Positions 786 through 62,404 are shown, counted from the first letter of the stretch. The stretch is 64,000 nt of DNA from Candidatus Micrarchaeota archaeon (GCA_043821365.1 JBDRCX010000006.1:352001-416000), one strand, 5' to 3'. A program made the numbers and translations. The notes: generated by a model from the sequence alone, not told the origin.

Positions 786-923
786 GCAGGGATAGCAAAG
801 CCTGGTCAAATGCGCAGGACTTAAGAAACTTCGCTGATGTTTGGCAGATGTCAAAGTTCCATCAAAGGTCTTGAGTTATCCTGTCGCTTAGTGCGTTCGA
901 CGGTTCAAATCCGTCTCCCTGCA
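786..923 (+). tRNA. trnL: tRNA-Leu(TAA) with a 52-nt intron at 37/38 (826-877)
   Basis: Acceptor GCAGGGA/TCCCTGC, anticodon stem CAGGA/TCCTG, TAA at 822-824, long variable arm, T-arm GACGG-TTCAAAT-CCGTC. BHB central helix CTTA/TGAG with two 3-nt bulges. Confidence 0.95.
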
Positions 924-47242: not shown

Positions 47243-48238
47243 CTATTCTAACATTATTCCTTCTTTTATTTCAATTAATCTTCCTAATGCTTCATCAAGA
47301 GTTTCAACTTCTATAGCTTTGATTCCAATGCTTTTTGGAGTCACATTTAGGTTTGTTTCTATTTCTTTTACTGCTATTATGGGTATTTTCTTTTTCATGG
47401 ACTCAAATACTGGTATCCCACCGCATGCAGAATGTGGAATGACAAGCGCAGAAACATCTTCAATTCCAATTCCTTTTTTAGATATTTTAGGTGCTCTGGA
47501 AAGTCCAATTAACACGCAACCTAAGTAAGCAGGGGATATTGCTTCTTCACCTGCTCTCCAATAAACTACTTCATCTTTGAGATTCAGTTTCCAATCTTTT
47601 TCAGAAACAAGAGGAGCATGCGCAGCTGGCATCTTGTATTTCTTTACTACATAATGGGAAACAACGGCTTCCAGTGCACCGACTGGGTTTGGTAGTTTTC
47701 CTTTGTAATATTCTTCCCATAGCTTAGGATCAGAATCTATCTGGATGCTGAGTGCTATGCTTTGTGCTCCTTTTGCAATTAATTTTTTGATTGGTTTGTC
47801 GAATTGTGTTAGGTCTTTTATGCTGCCATAGGCAACTCCATTTTTTATTATTGCTTCAGCACCAACTTTTTTCCCTGTCATTTCAATTCCAACAACATTT
47901 ATGCCGCCATCTGCATGCAATCCATTCACTGTATTTTTTAGTAATGCCATTGCACCTTTATCATCATTTTTTTCAACTACAACGCCTATTCTGTTTCCTT
48001 TTGACGGATCTAATTTTATCTCTCCTCGAAAAAACATATCAAAAAGAGTTCCTTCAGTATACACAATATTCTCTCTCATAAGATTGAGGACGCCACCATT
48101 TACTACATTTGGATGTGTTATTGTATAATCTGAAATAGAAGCTATCAGATTTGCAAATGGTGTGGCATCACCTAAGTATCCACCTACCGAAGCCTTTATT
48201 CCAGTTGGAATCATTAATGTGGTTATGAATGCGCACAT
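47243..48238 (-). CDS. DUF3326 family protein
   Basis: LMIPTGIKASVGGYLGDATP, ITHPNVVNGG, PNPVGALEAVVSH. Confidence 0.8.
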   Translation of the reverse strand: MCAFITTLMIPTGIKASVGGYLGDATPFANLIASISDYTITHPNVVNGGVLNLMRENIVYTEGTLFDMFFRGEIKLDPSKGNRIGVVVEKNDDKGAMALLKNTVNGLHADGGINVVGIEMTGKKVGAEAIIKNGVAYGSIKDLTQFDKPIKKLIAKGAQSIALSIQIDSDPKLWEEYYKGKLPNPVGALEAVVSHYVVKKYKMPAAHAPLVSEKDWKLNLKDEVVYWRAGEEAISPAYLGCVLIGLSRAPKISKKGIGIEDVSALVIPHSACGGIPVFESMKKKIPIIAVKEIETNLNVTPKSIGIKAIEVETLDEALGRLIEIKEGIMLE

Positions 48239-48372
48239 AGTATCGTTACTCCATTTTTCTCAACTCTGATTACACCACTGCGAAGACATTTCATTTTTTT
48301 CATTGCTTTATCTATTGTTTTCCAGTTTTTTGATTTTACAAATATGAAATCTGTTTTTGCTTTTTTACCCAT
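48223..48372 (-). CDS. 49-aa Lys-rich small protein, absent from the ORF track
   Basis: MGKKAKTDFIFVKSKNWKTIDKAMKKMKCLRSGVIRVEKNGVTILCAHS*; overlaps the DUF3326 start; upstream GGGTGA. Confidence 0.45.
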   Translation of the reverse strand: MGKKAKTDFIFVKSKNWKTIDKAMKKMKCLRSGVIRVEKNGVTILCAHS

Positions 48373-48469
48373 GATTTGTTCACCCAGTGTGGCTTTTTAT
48401 ATACTTAACGCAATTCAAGAAGCTTTAAAAGACTTTTTACGTTATACCTTCAATTCTTAGGTAGATACT

Positions 48470-48553
48470 ATGAAACCATTGTCCATAGACGAAGAAGATT
48501 TTGATGAGGACGACGATTTCGAAGAAGATGAATGGGGCGAAGAGGATGATTGA
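48470..48553 (+). CDS. acidic micropeptide 1 (27 aa)
   Basis: MKPLSIDEEDFDEDDDFEEDEWGEEDD*; preceded by AGGTAGA. Confidence 0.7.
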   Translation: MKPLSIDEEDFDEDDDFEEDEWGEEDD

Positions 48554-48554
48554 T

Positions 48555-48638
48555 ATGATATTTAAAATCGATGAAGAAGACGATTTTGATGAAAATGATG
48601 ATTCAGAAGATGAATGGACAGACGAGGAAGATGATTAA
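48555..48638 (+). CDS. acidic micropeptide 2 (27 aa)
   Basis: MIFKIDEEDDFDENDDSEDEWTDEEDD*; starts 2 nt after stop 1. Confidence 0.7.
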   Translation: MIFKIDEEDDFDENDDSEDEWTDEEDD

Positions 48639-48715
48639 TGCGTCCCTTATCCATTGATGAAGAAGAAGACCTAGATGATGATTTCGAAGATGAAGATTGG
48701 GGCGAGGAAGATTAA
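48638..48715 (+). CDS. acidic micropeptide 3 (25 aa)
   Basis: MRPLSIDEEEDLDDDFEDEDWGEED*; TAATG stop/start overlap. Confidence 0.7.
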   Translation: MRPLSIDEEEDLDDDFEDEDWGEED

Positions 48716-48730
48716 TTTTTATTTTTTCTA
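48716..48730 (+). terminator. oligo-T terminator after the micropeptide triplet
   Basis: TTTTTATTTTTTCT directly after the third stop codon. Confidence 0.5.
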
Positions 48731-48787
48731 ATGTTTTTAAACCTCTCTTAGGATAATATAACCTATTCTTGAGTGTTTCTCAGGTGT

Positions 48788-48990
48788 GGGCCCGTAGCTC
48801 AGTGCGGTTTTTTGGAAAAAAAAGCGCGAGTAGCTTGGATAGAGCGGCAGCCTTCTAACTTAAGGAAAAGATAAATGGCCAGTTTTGGTTCAACATTTTC
48901 CTAAAAGGTTGAAAGCTGTAGGCCAGGGGTTCAAAAGCTTTGCGCTGGCGCGCAAAATTTGCCAGCAAGCTGACAATCCCCTCGGGCCCG
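48788..48990 (+). tRNA. trnR: tRNA-Arg(TCT) with three introns: 15/16 (48803-48833), 37/38 (48858-48913), 59/60 (48936-48976)
   Basis: Spliced: GGGCCCG TA GCTC AGCTTGGATA GAGC G GCAGC CTTCTAA GCTGT AGGCC AGGGG TTCAAAT CCCCT CGGGCCC G. BHB at 15/16 (GCTC/GAGT) and at 59/60 (h' GCTT/AAGC). Confidence 0.9.
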
Positions 48991-49724: not shown

Positions 49725-51098
49725 ATGAATTTTTACCCACACTCTACCATGAAAGATGCACTAATAAAATTTCTCACTAGTTTAGGTCTTCAAAATGAGC
49801 TTGAACTTTACCTACGCTTGTTCAAGCAAGTGCAACCACACAAATTCGCAGTTGTAAAAATAAGTGGAGCTACACTTTCAGAAAAAATGGATACAGTTGC
49901 AGAAGATCTTGCGTTTCTTTCCAAGTTAGGTCTTTGTCCAATAGTTATTCACGGTGGCGGCAAACCGATAGATGAAGCTCTTAATAAAAAAGGATTAGAA
50001 ATCAAAAAAGTCAATGGTATGCGTATTACTAATAAGGAAGTAATGCTTGTAACCTCTAAAGTTCTAAATAAACTCACAAATCAACTCGTTTCTCTTATTA
50101 ACAAGAAAGGCGGTCATGCTTTGAATATCAATGATTTTGGCATGATTAAACTCAAAAAAAGTGGATCGGTTGGTGGGGTTGACCTTGGCCTTGTAGCAGA
50201 AATAACTGACATAAATATAAATAAGTTTAAGGAATTGTGCGATTTCGGGTATATGCCTGTTCTAGCATCCATGGGTAATATTGATGGCACTTCATTCAAT
50301 GTCAATGCTGATATTCTTGCAAATGCCATTGTCAAAAAAACCAGACCAAAGAAATTTATCCTACTTACTGATACTGGTGGAATATTGGATAAACAAGGGC
50401 AAATAATTTCAGTTATTGATGTTCAATATGATCTTGAACAATTGGTCAATGGAAAGATTATCAGCGATGGCATGCTTTTAAAAGTGCGAGAAATAAAAAA
50501 ACTTCTCCAATTTGTTCCGGATACTGTAGTGGAAATCTGTTCACCTGAAAATCTTCTAAAAGAACTTTTTACTGTCAAAGGAAGTGGGACATTTGTTCGC
50601 TATGGTGGCAATTTTTTGGTCAAGAATAACTTTAAGGAACTGAATACAAAAAAGATCCAGAAGCTTTTGGTAGATAGCTTCTGCAAGGTTCTTAGTGACG
50701 ATTACTTTGACCAACCTATTGATCTTGTAATAGCTGATAAGGATTATTCAGCTGTTGCAATAATAAAGAAAATCTCGGGGCAGCCCTATTTGGATAAATT
50801 TGCAGTTTCAAAAAATGCACAGGGAAATGGTCTTGGCAAAACCGTTTGGTCTATTGTCAAAAAACACTATCCTTCGCTGATATGGCGTTCAAGTTTGGAC
50901 AATCCTATAAATAGCTGGTACTTCAAGAATGCAGATGGAGTTCATAAGAGTGATAAGTGGGCTATTTTTTGGTATAATCTACAACCTTCAACAGTACTGA
51001 TTCAAACAATTTCTAACATAGTTCCTACGTTGGTGAAAAAATGCGATGTGTTTTTTCTGAACCAAAACAACAATTTTGATATGGTGAAAAAATGTTAA
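49725..51098 (+). CDS. argB: acetylglutamate kinase fused to a NAT (DUF619-type) domain, NAGS/K-like
   Basis: VVKISGA, IHGGGKPID, GMRIT, NVNAD, KELFTVKGSGT; C-terminal YLDKFAV...QGNGLG...WRS...NSWYF...W. Confidence 0.9.
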   Translation: MNFYPHSTMKDALIKFLTSLGLQNELELYLRLFKQVQPHKFAVVKISGATLSEKMDTVAEDLAFLSKLGLCPIVIHGGGKPIDEALNKKGLEIKKVNGMRITNKEVMLVTSKVLNKLTNQLVSLINKKGGHALNINDFGMIKLKKSGSVGGVDLGLVAEITDININKFKELCDFGYMPVLASMGNIDGTSFNVNADILANAIVKKTRPKKFILLTDTGGILDKQGQIISVIDVQYDLEQLVNGKIISDGMLLKVREIKKLLQFVPDTVVEICSPENLLKELFTVKGSGTFVRYGGNFLVKNNFKELNTKKIQKLLVDSFCKVLSDDYFDQPIDLVIADKDYSAVAIIKKISGQPYLDKFAVSKNAQGNGLGKTVWSIVKKHYPSLIWRSSLDNPINSWYFKNADGVHKSDKWAIFWYNLQPSTVLIQTISNIVPTLVKKCDVFFLNQNNNFDMVKKC

Positions 51099-52231
51099 TC
51101 CAAGAAGAGAAAAAATATATCATGAGTGCCTATACTCGTTATCCATTAACAATAATAACTGGGGTTGGGTGTCATGCGTATGCTTCAGATGGAAATTGGT
51201 ACTTGGACATGGTTGGTGGCATTGCGTGTTGTCCGTTGGGTCATCAACACCCAGCAGTAAAAGATGCAATTTTGAGCCAGGTCAATAAGCTTACTAATGT
51301 TAGTAATCTTTTCTATACTGAGGAACAAATTGAACTGGCAAAAAAACTTGTCTCTCTTTCTGGATTGAAAAAATGTTTTTTTAGTAACAGTGGTACTGAG
51401 GCTAATGAGGCCGCAATTAAACTAGCAATTGCCAGCACTAAGAAACACGAATTCGTGGTTTGTCAGAATTCTTTTCATGGTCGTACATTTGGTAGTTTAT
51501 CTGCTACGTACGGTAAAAATTACACACAAAAATTTAGCCCACTTCTATCAAAGTTTGATTTTGTTCCATATGGTGATCTATCTGCAATATCAAACGCAAT
51601 AAATGAGAAAACAGCAGCAATACTACTTGAACCAATACAAGGCGAAGCAGGAATTATACTGCCCCATCATGATTATCTAAAAGAATTATCTGAACTTTGT
51701 GAATCAAAGGGAGTGCTATTTATGTTAGATGAAGTCCAAACAGGCAATGGGCGGACCGGTACCTATTTTGAATATCTTTCCCATGGCATAAAACCAGATA
51801 TTGTTACAACTGCAAAAGGTCTGGCAAATGGTCTTCCAATTGGAGTAACATTATCAAATGGTGTTGATTTTGAACCAGGTGACCATGCATCTACATTCGG
51901 AGGCAATTCATTTGTTTGTGCCGTTGCATCTTCTGTTGTTTCAACTATTTCAAAAAATGGGATGATGGAAAATGCTGCAGTTCAGGGAGACTATATTAAA
52001 AATCAAATTCTTAAATTTGATAAAAAAGAAGTAAAGGAAGTTCGGGGCAAGGGACTTATGATTGGTATTGAATTAGATAAACCAGCAAAAGAAAAAATAT
52101 CTAAATTTATGAAACACGGAGTGTTGGTAAATGTTGTAAATGAGAATACCATCAGATTACTTCCGCCTCTTATACTGGTTCAAAAACAAGCAGATCAATT
52201 CCTTTCTGCATTTAACGAGGTAGTATCATGA
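51092..52231 (+). CDS. argD: acetylornithine aminotransferase
   Basis: LDMVGGIA, SNSGTEANE, FHGRT, LEPIQGEAG, DEVQTG, TAKGLANG, STFGGN. Confidence 0.93.
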   Translation: MLIQEEKKYIMSAYTRYPLTIITGVGCHAYASDGNWYLDMVGGIACCPLGHQHPAVKDAILSQVNKLTNVSNLFYTEEQIELAKKLVSLSGLKKCFFSNSGTEANEAAIKLAIASTKKHEFVVCQNSFHGRTFGSLSATYGKNYTQKFSPLLSKFDFVPYGDLSAISNAINEKTAAILLEPIQGEAGIILPHHDYLKELSELCESKGVLFMLDEVQTGNGRTGTYFEYLSHGIKPDIVTTAKGLANGLPIGVTLSNGVDFEPGDHASTFGGNSFVCAVASSVVSTISKNGMMENAAVQGDYIKNQILKFDKKEVKEVRGKGLMIGIELDKPAKEKISKFMKHGVLVNVVNENTIRLLPPLILVQKQADQFLSAFNEVVS

Positions 52232-53130
52232 TCAAAGCAGCGGTTTTGGGTGCTTCTGGTTATTCTGGTAATGAATTAGTCAGCATTTTAGCTAATCATC
52301 CACAGGTTGATCTTGACTTCATACAAAGTAAAAATAATATTGGTAAAAAAGTAACTGGCATCTATCCAGATTCAAAAGTAAATCTCACCTACTCTGATCC
52401 ATCTCTAGAAGAACTCAACAAAGTCGATGTTGTTTTCCTTGCCCTTCCAAAAGAAGAATCACTACGTCTAGCATCAAAACTATCAACTCTAATCATCGAT
52501 CTGAGTCCGGCACATCGATTTCATTCTGAGTATGTTTATGGTCTCCCAGAAATTAATAGAGAAAAAATCAAATCAGCCAATAAAATAGCCAACCCTGGAT
52601 GTTATGCAACTGTTTCGCTTCTGGGTATTTTGCCGTTAACCAAAGTCCAAGTCAATGCCATTGCTTTTGATTGTAAAAGTGGCTATTCAGGTGGTGGTAA
52701 GAGTGTAAAATATGATTTCCAGGAAAATTCTATCCCATACTCTCTTGTTGATCACTATCAAAAACCAGAAATTGCCCAATTTGTTGATGTTCCTTTTTCA
52801 TTTACACCTCATGTTGTTAATGCGTTTCGTGGTCTGATAGCAACTGTTCACATATTTGGTGAATTTGATGATTTGGAATTATTATACCAAAAATTCTACG
52901 AAAAAGAACCGTGTGTTAAAGTTATCAATAGCATACCTGATTTCAAATCAGTTTCTAAGACCCCCTATTGCATGATCGGTGGGATTTCTAAGATGAAGGA
53001 CCATCACATTCTAATAAGTGCTATTGATAATTTGCTAAAAGGTGCTGCTTCACAGGCAGTTCAGAATATGAATATTCGATTTGGTTTTGATGAAAAAACC
53101 AGTTTAGATATTTTTGAGGTGAACTTATGA
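52228..53130 (+). CDS. argC: N-acetyl-gamma-glutamyl-phosphate reductase
   Basis: [42 protein letters not shown]. Confidence 0.95.
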
Positions 53131-54365
53131 ATAAAAAAGTAGTTTTGGCATATTCGGGAGGTTTGGATACCTCGTGTATCCTTAAGTGGTTAGTGGAAAA
53201 AGGATATGAAGTCATAGCATATGTTGGAGATGTTGGGCAGAATGAAGACTTTGAAGTAGTGAAGAAAAAAGCTCTTGAAATTGGTGCATCTAAAGTCTAT
53301 GTTGAAAATTTGCAAAAAGAATTTGTAACTGATTTTATTTTTCCAGCAATAAAAGCAAATGCAATTTATGAAAGTAGATATCTTCTTGGTACTTCACTTG
53401 CACGTCCAGTGATTGCAAGAAAGCAGATGGAAATTGCAGAGAGAGAAAATGCAGAATATGTTTCTCATGGTGCAACCGGGAAAGGCAATGATCAAGTTCG
53501 TTTTGAGCTTACTTATTACGCTCTCAATCCAAAAATCAAGGTCATAGCACCATGGAAAGACTCAGACTTCTTAGCCAAATTCAAAGGCAGAAAAGATCTT
53601 ATTAATTATGCAAATGAAAAAGGGATTCCAATCAAAGCAACTCATGACAAACCATACAGTACTGACGCAAACCTTATGCACATAAGTTATGAATCTGGGA
53701 TGTTAGAAGATCCAAAAACTGCTCCAACTCCGGCAATGTTTGAGTGGACAAAATCACCAAAAGATGCTCCTGATAAAGAAACACACCTTGAAATTCATTT
53801 CAAAGATGGACTTCCAATTAAGGTTGTGAATAAGGAAAATGGGGCTGCAGTGACAGATCCTCTCGAGCTATTAGTTTATTTGAATGAAGTCGGAGCAGAA
53901 AATGGTGTTGGTCGTATTGATATTGTAGAGAACCGTTTTGTTGGTATAAAATCACGTGGAGTTTATGAAACTCCTGGAGTTACGATCTTACGTGCTGCAC
54001 ATTTGGATATAGAATCCATTGCAATGGATCGAGAAGTTATGCGATTGCGTGATATGCTTGAACCAAAATTCTCAGAATTTGTCTATAATGGTTTTTGGTT
54101 TAGTCCTGAGATGGATTTTCTAAATGCTGCAATAAATAAAAGTCAAGAACTTATTGACGGTGTTGTGTATCTTAGTTTGTACAAGGGTAACATAACAATA
54201 ATTGGTAGAGAATCACCAAGTTCACTTTACGACAAGGATCTTTCAAGCATGGATATTGAAGGTGGATTCAATCAAAGTGATTCAGCAGGGTTTATTAAGA
54301 TCAATGCAATTCGATTGATGGCACACAATGCGATTATACATCATAAGAAAAAGCACGGTAATTAG
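53127..54365 (+). CDS. argG: argininosuccinate synthase
   Basis: [48 protein letters not shown]. Confidence 0.97.
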
Positions 54366-54379
54366 TGCAGGTGGTTTTG

Positions 54380-55573
54380 ATGCTTTGGGGAGGAAGATTT
54401 TCTAAAGATCCTAAGAAAAATTTGCTGTTATTCAACAGTTCAGACAATATTTCTGTTGATGAAAAACTTGTTGGATACGATATTGTGGGGAGCATTGCAC
54501 ATGTTAAAATGCTTAATAAGCAAAAGCTTCTCAACAATACTGAAGCAAATGCAATAATCAAAGCACTAAATGAAGTTCTTGCTGAATGGAAATCTGGCAA
54601 ATTTAAATTAGACCCAAATCTTGAAGATGTGCACATGAATGTTGAAGTTGCAGTTACAAAAAAAACACCATTTGGCAAAAAAATGCATACTGCAAGATCA
54701 AGAAATGATCAAATAAATTTAGATATGCGTTTGTACATGCGCGATAATGTGACTAAATTTATTTCGTCATTAAGAACTCTTCAAAAAGCATTCAATTCCC
54801 AAAATAAAATCGAAATACCTGCCCATACCCACACCAGAGTAGCTCAGCCAATTACAACTAAACTCTATTACGATGGCTATTCAACTTCTCTGAATAAAGA
54901 TATCGAACGCCTTAACCAGCTTTACAAAAGAATAAACAAATCACCATTAGGTGCATGTGCAATTTCAGGAACCACCCTTCCAATAGACAGAGATTATACT
55001 GCCAATTTACTTGGTTTTGATGGTATTGAAAAAAATCCAGTCGAAACAATAAGTTCAAGAGGGGAATTGGAAGCAGAATTTGCTTTCATATGCACTCTTA
55101 TTGCCATACAATTATCTCGTTTTGCAGAAGATATGATCTGGTTCAGTTATGTTGGTTTAGTTGAACTACCAGAAGAATACTGTACTGGTAGTAGCATAAT
55201 GCCAAACAAATCAAATCCAGATGTTTTTGAGCTTATTCGTGGGAGATCTGCAAAAGTCCAAGGGAATCTTGTTACTTTACTCACTCTTTTGAAAGGAACT
55301 CCAACAGGACACAATGCAGATACTCAAGAATCAAAAAAAGCAATTATGGAATCAATTGAAACAGTTTCTAGCTGCACTGCTATCCTAGCTGACATAATAC
55401 CGCAGATAAAATGGAATAAAAAGAAAGCCAAAAAGCTGATAGATCAAGGATATGCAAGAGCCACTCTTCTTGCAGATGATCTTGTAAAAAAAGGGATCTC
55501 ATTTAGAGAAGCTCATGAGAAAATTGGTAAATTGATAAAAAGACTCGAAAAAGAAGGAAAATATATCGAGTAA
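54380..55573 (+). CDS. argH: argininosuccinate lyase
   Basis: MLWGGRF, EDVH, HTARSRNDQ, SPLGACA, GSSIMPNKSNPD, FREAH. Confidence 0.95.
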   Translation: MLWGGRFSKDPKKNLLLFNSSDNISVDEKLVGYDIVGSIAHVKMLNKQKLLNNTEANAIIKALNEVLAEWKSGKFKLDPNLEDVHMNVEVAVTKKTPFGKKMHTARSRNDQINLDMRLYMRDNVTKFISSLRTLQKAFNSQNKIEIPAHTHTRVAQPITTKLYYDGYSTSLNKDIERLNQLYKRINKSPLGACAISGTTLPIDRDYTANLLGFDGIEKNPVETISSRGELEAEFAFICTLIAIQLSRFAEDMIWFSYVGLVELPEEYCTGSSIMPNKSNPDVFELIRGRSAKVQGNLVTLLTLLKGTPTGHNADTQESKKAIMESIETVSSCTAILADIIPQIKWNKKKAKKLIDQGYARATLLADDLVKKGISFREAHEKIGKLIKRLEKEGKYIE

Positions 55574-60717: not shown

Positions 60718-62151
60718 TTATGCTCCGGATTTAAAATCCAGCGTATGTAATCGAACTTGTTTCATTTCATATACTGGAACTAGGGCAGGGGTTGGTACAT
60801 GCCCCTGTTTTATCTGAAAATCTGTTCTATCCTGGAATGTCCCTGAATTTATAACTAATGTTCCTCTGTATTGGGTGTACCCGTTCTTATGGACATGGCC
60901 GCAATGGAAAACGTCAGGGGGGTCGTCTATTATCATATAATCGTTGTCTTCGGGAATTATCAAATTCCCGCCGTAAATCGGTGATAAATGTCTTCTTTTT
61001 AGATATTCAACCATTACTTTTTCAGGATGAGTATATGTCGTCTGTGGAATATTTGCTATCATGGAGTCTATTGAGGTTCCGTGATACATAAGGTGTTTTA
61101 TTCCTTCCACATTGAAGCATGATGGGTTACCAACTCGTGTTACATTTGATGTCACATACTCCTTGCTTATTGCTGGTTGTGGTTCTCCTCTTCTTACTGC
61201 ATCATGATTTCCTGGACCAACTATAACTTCAATGTAATCAGGCAAATTTTCGATAAAATCATCAAACATCTTATATTGTTGGAATACGTCCTTTACAATA
61301 AGTTCATTTTCTTGGTTTGGATAAATTCCAATCCCATCAACAATATCGCCTGCAATTGCAAGGTATTTCACTTTTCCTGCAAGTTCTTTTGCCTCTCCTT
61401 TTCCATGAAGCCAGTCAACAAAGACATTCAAATATTTATCGAGGAAATATCTACTTCCAAAATGTATATCTGATAGATATGCTATTGCAACATCATTCTC
61501 TACTTTTTTCTTCTCTCTTATAACTGGCAAGTCTGGCCATTCTATATCCTCTGCAATAAGGTATGGTTCAAGTACTTTTCCAGTTATTGCTATAATATCG
61601 TCTAATATCACAGACTTGGCCTTTCCCATGACTTTTTCATTGAATTTTGATGATGAGATGACAACCTTAAACGTTCCGCTCAGATCCTCAATTTCAAACA
61701 ATAAATTGCCTTTTTTCGTTTCTCTTTTATTACTTATAAAAACAATTACCCGTACGCGTTCATTAAGATGTTTTTTTATATCTGCAAGATCTGCTGTGGG
61801 TACTGAATTACTTCGTCTAAGCATTTTTGAAATCCTTTCAAATCTGTTTCTGAAGTGTGCTATAAAATTATCAACTTCGCCTTTTGTTCTTGATTTTCCT
61901 GTTACGTCTAATGAGTGGTTTATTTTTACGTCTGAAGAATATTCTTTTGCAACTGGTGAAAACTCCGCCTTTCTTATGACTTCAACTTGCGATTCTTTCT
62001 TTGGTTTAATTAGTTCTTCTATGTCTTCTTTTGAAACAAATGGTTTACCCAATCCAATTATCTTCTTTAATAATTCATCCGATGAATTGGCTTTCAAAAA
62101 ATTTTCTGCATCGACAGTAAGTCTGATTCCTTTTCCAACTAATTCATCCAT
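60718..62151 (-). CDS. polB: DNA polymerase D small subunit DP1
   Basis: SDIHFGS, GDIVDG, PGNHD, YHG, RRHLSP, GHVH, NSGTFQ; OB fold. Confidence 0.95.
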   Translation of the reverse strand: MDELVGKGIRLTVDAENFLKANSSDELLKKIIGLGKPFVSKEDIEELIKPKKESQVEVIRKAEFSPVAKEYSSDVKINHSLDVTGKSRTKGEVDNFIAHFRNRFERISKMLRRSNSVPTADLADIKKHLNERVRVIVFISNKRETKKGNLLFEIEDLSGTFKVVISSSKFNEKVMGKAKSVILDDIIAITGKVLEPYLIAEDIEWPDLPVIREKKKVENDVAIAYLSDIHFGSRYFLDKYLNVFVDWLHGKGEAKELAGKVKYLAIAGDIVDGIGIYPNQENELIVKDVFQQYKMFDDFIENLPDYIEVIVGPGNHDAVRRGEPQPAISKEYVTSNVTRVGNPSCFNVEGIKHLMYHGTSIDSMIANIPQTTYTHPEKVMVEYLKRRHLSPIYGGNLIIPEDNDYMIIDDPPDVFHCGHVHKNGYTQYRGTLVINSGTFQDRTDFQIKQGHVPTPALVPVYEMKQVRLHTLDFKSGA

Positions 62152-62158
62152 TTACCCA

Positions 62159-62404
62159 CTAACGTTCATTGTGGCTTTCTAGAGCACTGATAACTGCCCA
62201 TATCTGAGTCCTAGCATGGGCTGGCATGTTTATGTCCTCAGTTATTCCCTCGATAATGTAGATCGCAGCACTGATTTTCACGCTTTTTTCTTCTTCACTA
62301 TCAAGACGTGCTTTTGCTTCAGTTAATGCTCTTCTTATATTCTTTGGAATTCCGGTATCATTAGCTAGTTCGCCTACCATCCCACTTATTTCTTCTAACT
62401 CCAT
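62159..62404 (-). CDS. UPF0147 family protein
   Basis: DTGIPKNIRR...DINMPAHARTQIWAVISALE. Confidence 0.9.
   Translation of the reverse strand: MELEEISGMVGELANDTGIPKNIRRALTEAKARLDSEEEKSVKISAAIYIIEGITEDINMPAHARTQIWAVISALESHNER

Follow-up and report, generated by a model that had tools for sequence, protein, structure and literature searches.

In the eukaryotic protein DSS1, Trp and Phe are embedded in runs of Asp and Glu, and in E. coli SSB (...DDDIPF) and the phage T7 proteins gp2.5 and gp4, acidic tails with Phe or Trp dock on basic pockets of replication proteins, polymerases among them. DSS1 is an acidic, aromatic, disordered protein that competes with DNA and occupies the basic DNA-binding surfaces of its partners, e.g. 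BRCA2 and RPA (PMC11329725, PMC7641332), and it binds many complexes (PMC6218214). Competition with DNA is also established for the acidic regions of histone chaperones (PMC10987829). Acidic sequences act on the ribosome as well: in bacteria, Asp/Glu-rich N-termini cause translation to abort, an effect exploited for sensing, e.g. in E. coli mgtL (bioRxiv 10.1101/2021.02.02.429294), and Asp/Glu runs destabilise ribosomes in eukaryotes too (PMC9718836). Here, a stretch of 64,000 nucleotides from a Candidatus Micrarchaeota archaeon (GCA_043821365.1, JBDRCX010000006.1:352001-416000; hereafter the window, with positions counted from its first letter) was analysed, in which an initial annotation had pointed to three tandem open reading frames (ORFs) for hyper-acidic micropeptides at 48470-48715. 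Judged by sequence comparison, these ORFs are very probably real protein-coding genes under selection.

Results

Three tandem ORFs for hyper-acidic peptides

The three ORFs were found on the + strand with translations exactly matching those quoted initially. Each was matched by the family profile described in the next section.

48470-48553, + strand: ORF1, 27 amino acids (aa), MKPLSIDEEDFDEDDDFEEDEWGEEDD; family profile match E 4.8e-7
48555-48638, + strand: ORF2, 27 aa, MIFKIDEEDDFDENDDSEDEWTDEEDD; family profile match E 1.5e-4
48638-48715, + strand: ORF3, 25 aa, MRPLSIDEEEDLDDDFEDEDWGEED; family profile match E 5.6e-8

Asp and Glu account for 63, 63, and 60% of ORF1, ORF2, and ORF3, respectively, lower than the "about 70%" of the initial annotation. 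With one basic residue per peptide, the net charges are about -16.5 for ORF1 and ORF2 and about -14.5 for ORF3. The coupling of the ORFs was as described at the second junction, where the start of ORF3 overlaps the stop of ORF2 (TAATG), and had to be corrected at the first, where the ORF1 stop and the ORF2 start are separated by 1 nt (TGA-T-ATG) and not by a 2-nt gap. ORF1 and ORF3 share a reading frame and ORF2 lies in another, indicating that the three are not one broken gene. The copies differ in nucleotide sequence at many positions, and ORF2 has positional orthologues in the close relatives L003 and L004.

The peptides form a family confined to one archaeal lineage

The first matches were obtained by a DNA search, which returned matching micro-ORFs in genomes of the same genus. 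An alignment of 29 copies was converted into a 28-position profile, and genomes were searched with it in six frames. The profile matched all 25 genomes of the same genus, 46 of 73 genomes of the same taxonomic family, and 2 of 19 genomes of one sister family. No match was obtained in the other genomes of the phylum (0 of ~237), and outside the two families nothing appeared even at E <= 10. Because genomes lacking a match are often incomplete, true absence of the family from them is not implied. Where the profile did match, the genome carries a single locus of 1-3 tandem copies. By these searches, the family is confined to the Micrarchaeota, namely to a Bilamarchaeaceae-like family and one sister family. 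The same DNA is present in groundwater and biofilm metagenomes of independent studies, and DNA runs confirm the assembly in independent groundwater samples.

A search of 1.84 billion representative proteins with the profile returned only eight matches, all 30-42 aa long and clearly members of the family, whose public records are unnamed or labelled "hypothetical protein". No long fused form of the motif was present among these 1.84 billion proteins, which speaks against a tail that became detached from a protein still detectable in fused form. None of the 29 members matched Pfam at E <= 10, and no chain was matched in a PDB sequence search with the family profile at the same threshold. A feature search of the ESM Atlas yielded unnamed clusters only, with scores of 0.80-0.82, which is the chance level. 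No description of such archaeal peptides was found in the literature, where subscription journals lay mostly outside the search. The suggestion of an undescribed small-protein family is thus borne out, with a conserved promoter, Shine-Dalgarno site, frame, and Trp, and with "hypothetical protein" as the most that any record says.

In the relatives L017/L041 (G021:C10), P0005, and P0008, the usual start of the peptide is preceded by an in-frame extension rich in Arg and Gly (MGRGRGR...), which represents either an alternative start or a by-product of the overlapping upstream copy.

Codon variation and residue conservation indicate selection on the peptides

Comparative statistics were computed on 59 distinct copies. 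The start ATG is invariant, and the length is held at 23-35 aa across the ~59 copies. Mean entropies at codon positions 1, 2, and 3 are 0.43, 0.43, and 1.54 bits, and all four Pro codons are in use at position 3 of the peptide. Near the end, 55 of 59 copies have a Trp codon (TGG). Asp occupies column 7 in 54 of 59 copies (GAC in 31, GAT in 23), and Glu occupies columns 8, 10, and 26 in 53 of 59. Since codons for Asp and Glu differ at the third base only, this column preference indicates that selection acts on the protein, not on a purine-rich nucleic acid. A dN/dS comparison, which the initial annotation had proposed as a check, gave a pooled NG86 value of ~0.2, as expected under purifying selection; the value is noisy, given the short sequences and a dS close to saturation.

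The plain consensus is M-K-P-L-R-I-D-E-E-E-D-W-E-D-E-D-F-E-D-E-E-W-E-E-E-E, and the degenerate form is M-[KR]-P-[LMF]-[RK]-[ILM]-D-E-E-E-D-[WF]-E-D-[DE]-D-[F/S/T]-E-D-E-E-W-[EG]-E-E-E. Outside the genus, an EEF end is frequent. Bulky hydrophobic or aromatic residues recur at about positions 4, 6, 12, 17, and 22, i.e. every 5-6 positions, a spacing that would give no amphipathic helix.

The non-gene explanation holds that the region is a purine-rich GAN-repeat DNA or RNA element and that the open frame is its by-product. GAN-rich sequence does leave one frame open by itself, and the sole RNA data set sharing words with the region is off the ORFs. Against these two points, no array was detected by Tandem Repeats Finder in 48300-48900 at a score of at least 30. 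Codon position 3 varies 3.6 times more than positions 1 and 2, Asp and Glu are chosen column by column, and the ATG, the Shine-Dalgarno site, the stop position, and the TGG are all conserved at a fixed length range that has no expansions. Nothing similar was found in control loci or in the rest of the genome, as detailed below. Such an element is therefore very improbable and is already contradicted by the comparative data. Simple GAW-repeat expansion, named beforehand as the outcome that would count against the peptides, is ruled out by the start, frame, length, and Trp that relatives conserve.

The peptides are the only hyper-acidic sequences of the genome

The genome to which the window belongs comprises 1.2 Mb in 6 contigs and is 87% complete. 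Among its 8,357 ATG-started ORFs of 18-60 aa, the present ORFs are the only ones with at least 45% Asp/Glu. No 20-residue segment with at least 14 Asp/Glu occurs in any ORF of at least 80 aa in this genome. Acidic micro-ORFs were likewise not found in 29 control loci of 3.2 kb taken from other families of the phylum. As a separate observation, the larger proteins of this genome appear to lack the acidic tails that other organisms commonly have.

This extreme and unique charge density would suit a bulk polyanion that has no specific protein partner and, in soluble form, buffers or carries metal cations (Mg2+/Ca2+ and others) or polyamines; the multiple copies suggest dosage. A buffer would have no need of column-specific Asp and Glu, an invariant Trp, fixed aromatic spacing, or the N-terminal M-K-P-L-R-I, and no transporter or metal-related gene is among the conserved neighbours. 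We regard this role as quite improbable. The two roles raised initially, buffering of cations or polyamines and decoying of basic chromatin proteins, would be possible.

Promoter, ribosome-binding, and terminator signals

Conserved sequence signals flank the ORFs on both sides.

48424-48431, + strand: TATA-box-like element TTTAAAAG, in a conserved block ~44-47 nt before the first ATG
48459-48464, + strand: Shine-Dalgarno-like AGGTAG, 5 nt before the ORF1 start; AGGTG in relatives
48716-48727, + strand: T-run TTTTTATTTTTT, putative intrinsic terminator

The conserved leader block reads (C/G)TTTAAAAG..CTTTC..TATACC..AGGTG..ATG. A TATA-like hexamer is present at -62..-30 in 41 of 48 unique loci, mostly 44-47 nt before the ATG, and from the archaeal consensus we infer that TTTAAAAG is a promoter element. 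An earlier TATA candidate, TTTATATA at ~48399, was dropped in favour of the conserved TTTAAAAG. In 38 of 48 unique loci, GGTG occurs at -16..-3 relative to the first ATG, as compared with ~16% of the long ORFs of the genome, by a crude count. For later copies, the GAGGA-rich last codons of the preceding ORF provide the ribosome-binding site, and in the window GAGGATGA inside the end of ORF1 can act as the Shine-Dalgarno site for ORF2. The 3' end of the 16S rRNA, with which the Shine-Dalgarno site would pair, could not be located in the assembly.

The oligo-T that the initial annotation placed after the ORFs was confirmed, and a run of at least 5 T follows within 40 nt of the last stop in 41 of 49 unique loci; it is a probable archaeal intrinsic terminator of the micro-operon. 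Folding of the RNA from 48452-48730 against shuffled sequences revealed no significant or alternative structure (z = -0.56), and a structured RNA or attenuator was rejected on this result. Everything in the arrangement of these signals points to a small, self-contained, translated transcription unit. In metatranscriptomes, sharing of words with a 1.9-kb stretch was limited to one data set, whose single contig covers 49242-49409, in an ACT-domain gene, and nothing on the ORFs, which is no evidence either way.

The ancestral neighbourhood contains tRNA-Arg, UPF0147, and PolD

The unit lies in the window between a divergent block, consisting of a 49-aa Lys-rich ORF and a DUF3326 gene, and a tRNA gene, with aCPSF1/FttA further upstream. 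The neighbours that recur in relatives are as follows.

48788-48990, + strand: tRNA-Arg(TCT) gene with three inserts, conserved downstream neighbour
62159-62404, - strand: UPF0147 (Pfam), displaced ancestral neighbour
60718-62151, - strand: PolD small subunit DP1 (Pfam), displaced ancestral neighbour

Of the inserts in the tRNA-Arg gene, one of ~32 nt lies in the D-loop region, one of ~56 nt follows the anticodon, and one of ~40 nt lies in the T-loop, all with approximate splice points. The intact gene was missed by ARAGORN and by a gathering-threshold search of Rfam, and ARAGORN called tRNA-Arg(tct) once the inserts had been removed in silico; orthologous loci with a single intron were called tRNA-Arg directly. 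Within 600 nt downstream of the ORFs, a tRNA 5' motif was counted in 41 of 47 unique loci, a rough motif count and not a set of validated tRNA calls. Elsewhere in the window, an Rfam tRNA match at 786-923 (+ strand) spans 138 nt for a 71-position model and has no ARAGORN call; this tRNA gene probably contains an intron as well.

When ~20 genus-level loci were examined together with flanks of 6 kb, UPF0147, DP1, and DP2 recurred downstream on the same strand, and the upstream genes varied. The peptide gene, tRNA-Arg, UPF0147, DP1, and DP2 lie on one strand in ~10 genera and also in named relatives, and by this comparison the ancestral order is peptide gene, tRNA-Arg, UPF0147, PolD DP1-DP2, a context that the initial annotation does not mention. 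UPF0147 (PF03685) was detected in 197 of 201 genomes of the phylum, and no acidic micro-ORF stands next to it in other families of the phylum; the near-universal gene thus occurs elsewhere with no such companion, indicating that the peptide gene is a lineage-specific addition. In the loci examined, UPF0147 lies directly upstream of PolD DP1-DP2, and this uncharacterised protein may be linked to polymerase D.

In the window, the PolD operon is 13 kb away. UPF0147 and DP1 are separated from the peptide genes by an acetyl-type arginine operon at 49725-55573 (ArgB-NAT fusion, argD, argC, argG, argH) and other genes, and as they directly follow the peptide gene in relatives, a rearrangement or inversion in this sub-lineage is indicated. 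Outside this genome and its closest relatives, the arginine operon does not adjoin the peptides. Upstream, aCPSF1/FttA and a phosphoribosyltransferase gene are neighbours only within the genus, and their adjacency is treated as synteny.

The 49-aa Lys-rich ORF (MGKKAKTDF...; 48223-48372, - strand) shares 16 nt with the start of the DUF3326 gene (47243-48238, - strand), has no Pfam match, and is 65-78% identical in the close relatives L003 and L004. This block of two genes occurs in only three genomes, where it replaces the phosphoribosyltransferase gene usual in the genus. A paired basic micro-ORF was considered and rejected, as a Lys/Arg-rich micro-ORF within 500 nt is found in only 7 of 56 loci and is not conserved.

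An amino-group carrier role beside the arginine operon is highly improbable

The same arginine genes bear on a role as a substrate or carrier for peptide modification, i.e. a LysW/ArgW-like amino-group carrier or a precursor of a ribosomally synthesised and post-translationally modified peptide (RiPP). ORF3 contains EDWGE and ORF1 contains DEWGE, and the acetylglutamate-kinase/NAT gene starts 1 kb downstream. The motif is, however, internal, with 2-10 residues following it, and Gly stands after Trp in only 14 of 59 copies; the C-termini vary (D, E, F, Y, G, L), and no member has a Cys or a zinc ribbon. A RimK/LysX-type ligase (PF08443) gave 0 matches in this 87%-complete genome as compared with 13 of 14 control genomes. 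The arginine genes are of the acetyl type, and their adjacency is limited to the closest relatives as noted above. For a RiPP precursor, as had been proposed, the conserved neighbours were inspected (tRNA-Arg, UPF0147, PolD DP1/DP2, aCPSF1, and phosphoribosyltransferase). None is a modification enzyme, and no maturase, protease, or exporter gene is among them; Cys is missing from the peptides, and Ser/Thr are scarce. This candidate was rejected, and the proposal as a whole is highly improbable and already largely refuted by sequence features and gene content.

Conservation of the ORFs beyond a leader position

The position of the ORFs would also suit a translational sensor acting in cis, in which they are leader ORFs and the peptide itself has no function, a possibility that the initial annotation had not raised. 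The Asp/Glu run from codon 7 would make ribosomes fall off at a rate set by Mg2+ or charged tRNA, and the progress of the ribosome would set transcriptional read-through past the T-run into tRNA-Arg, UPF0147, and PolD. The ORFs do lie directly upstream of these genes, on the same strand, in many genera, with the T-run between, and in nearly all members the Asp/Glu run begins at codon 6-7, within the first ~10 codons. Conserved single residues can also be held by arrest and leader peptides, e.g. W12, D16, and P24 in TnaC, which counts in favour of a sensor.

The arrangement departs from this expectation in several respects. Tandem copies, numbering 1-3, are needless for a leader, and the RNA shows neither a significant fold nor alternative ones. 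In the window, and likewise in several other loci, the ORFs are kept although the protein gene that comes next is unrelated or lies on the opposite strand; the tRNA motif is absent downstream in 6 of 47 loci; and in the window a TATA-like element belonging to the tRNA itself was seen by eye. Conservation extends over all 25-30 aa, including the C-terminal part, which an abortive product would never contain. We know of no demonstration of such ribosome destabilisation in archaea. A cis-acting sensor is thus considered unlikely.

Discussion

The reading that is tentatively favoured, at somewhat less than even chance when the mechanism is included, is that the peptide is a disordered polyanion acting in trans as a nucleic-acid mimic with aromatic anchors. 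It draws on the sequence pattern and on analogy with described systems, from which we infer translation in vivo, disorder, action in trans, and a partner. A tiny transcription unit, with a TATA box, a short Shine-Dalgarno leader, 1-3 coupled copies, and an oligo-T terminator, would yield in quantity a disordered polyanion with a net charge of about -15. The peptide would bind by charge to the basic surface of a nucleic-acid-binding protein, with Trp and Phe side chains as anchors, and would serve as a nucleic-acid mimic, competitor, or chaperone.

Several features fit this proposal. The 1-3 translationally coupled copies fit a product needed in quantity. In the window, the peptide genes are kept in three copies despite the displaced PolD and a next protein gene on the opposite strand, which argues for action in trans. 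The ancestral position just upstream of tRNA-Arg, UPF0147, and PolD makes replication proteins the first candidates for a partner. In a complex prediction with DP1, UPF0147, and the peptide, both runs returned a score of 0.00, with the fold of the peptide itself uncertain, a result that speaks neither for nor against binding.

Other points weigh against the polyanion acting in trans. The neighbourhood may be inherited synteny, and it is broken in ~7 of 20 genus-level loci. The partner remains hypothetical, and the resemblance to DSS1 and to SSB tails is compositional, with homology undetected. Because Asp/Glu runs after the start destabilise ribosomes, full-length synthesis is not to be assumed. 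The conserved bulky residues might serve continuity of translation or interaction with the ribosomal tunnel and not partner binding. Finally, RNA data sharing words with the region came from one set only, whose coverage falls on a neighbouring gene.

A more specific proposal is that the peptides are an unrecognised accessory or regulatory part of the replisome, docking by Trp/Phe on PolD, an ssDNA-binding protein, or another replication protein; this is rather unlikely. If it were true, an archaeal functional counterpart of DSS1 and SSB tails would exist as separate genes of 25-30 codons, and ribosomes would routinely complete poly-Asp/Glu chains of the kind that abort translation in bacteria and eukaryotes. 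Should their target be a replication protein or some other nucleic-acid-binding protein, the peptides would be the first acidic nucleic-acid mimics described in archaea as free-standing peptides. Should the ORFs instead act by destabilising ribosomes, the sensing principle would extend to archaea.

Proteins of fewer than 30-50 residues are routinely omitted from archaeal annotation, and the family offers a clean case in the little-known DPANN archaea, with comparative coding evidence about as strong as sequence alone permits. Its three copies here are the sole hyper-acidic sequences of a 1.2-Mb genome, and the family keeps an exact pattern of Asp, Glu, Trp, and Phe and ancestrally heads the PolD cluster. 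The peptides are short enough for chemical synthesis, so the question is directly testable.

Comparison with known systems

Leader ORFs of the MgtL type resemble the present ORFs in being very short, rich in Asp/Glu/Pro just after the start, and located upstream of same-strand genes. They differ in that the ORFs here are tandem copies conserved over their full length, are followed by a T-run with no alternative RNA structure, and are kept where a downstream same-strand protein gene is missing. LysW/ArgW share small size, acidity, and the EDWGE motif of ORF3, but they have a zinc-ribbon-type domain of ~50-60 aa and a C-terminal EDWGE with an acceptor Glu, whereas the members here are 23-35 aa long, have no Cys, and do not conserve the motif.

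Tails of the SSB type are closer in that many members outside the genus end in EEF and the ancestral position is next to PolD. Those tails are parts of larger proteins, whereas the peptide here is free-standing and its docking on DP1 or UPF0147 is hypothetical. DSS1/Sem1 (PF05160) is likewise small and very acidic, its disorder is matched by a predicted disorder of the peptides, and the PolD neighbourhood suggests a link to genome maintenance here too. DSS1/Sem1 is, however, a eukaryotic protein of ~70-90 aa in which two acidic/aromatic sites for binding are combined with a C-terminal helix, whereas the peptides are archaeal, occur in one lineage in 1-3 tandem copies, are about a third of its size, and have one acidic segment and no helical tail. 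Neither a Pfam match of the 29 members nor a PDB match of the profile was obtained at E <= 10, and the DSS1 partners proteasome lid, BRCA2, and TREX-2 are without established counterparts here.

On these sequence features, the family is a member of neither DSS1/Sem1 nor the replication-protein tails, every feature of membership compared having come out negative. We class it with the small acidic, aromatic, probably disordered binders, and by analogy it would work most like DSS1/Sem1 or the acidic tails of replication proteins.

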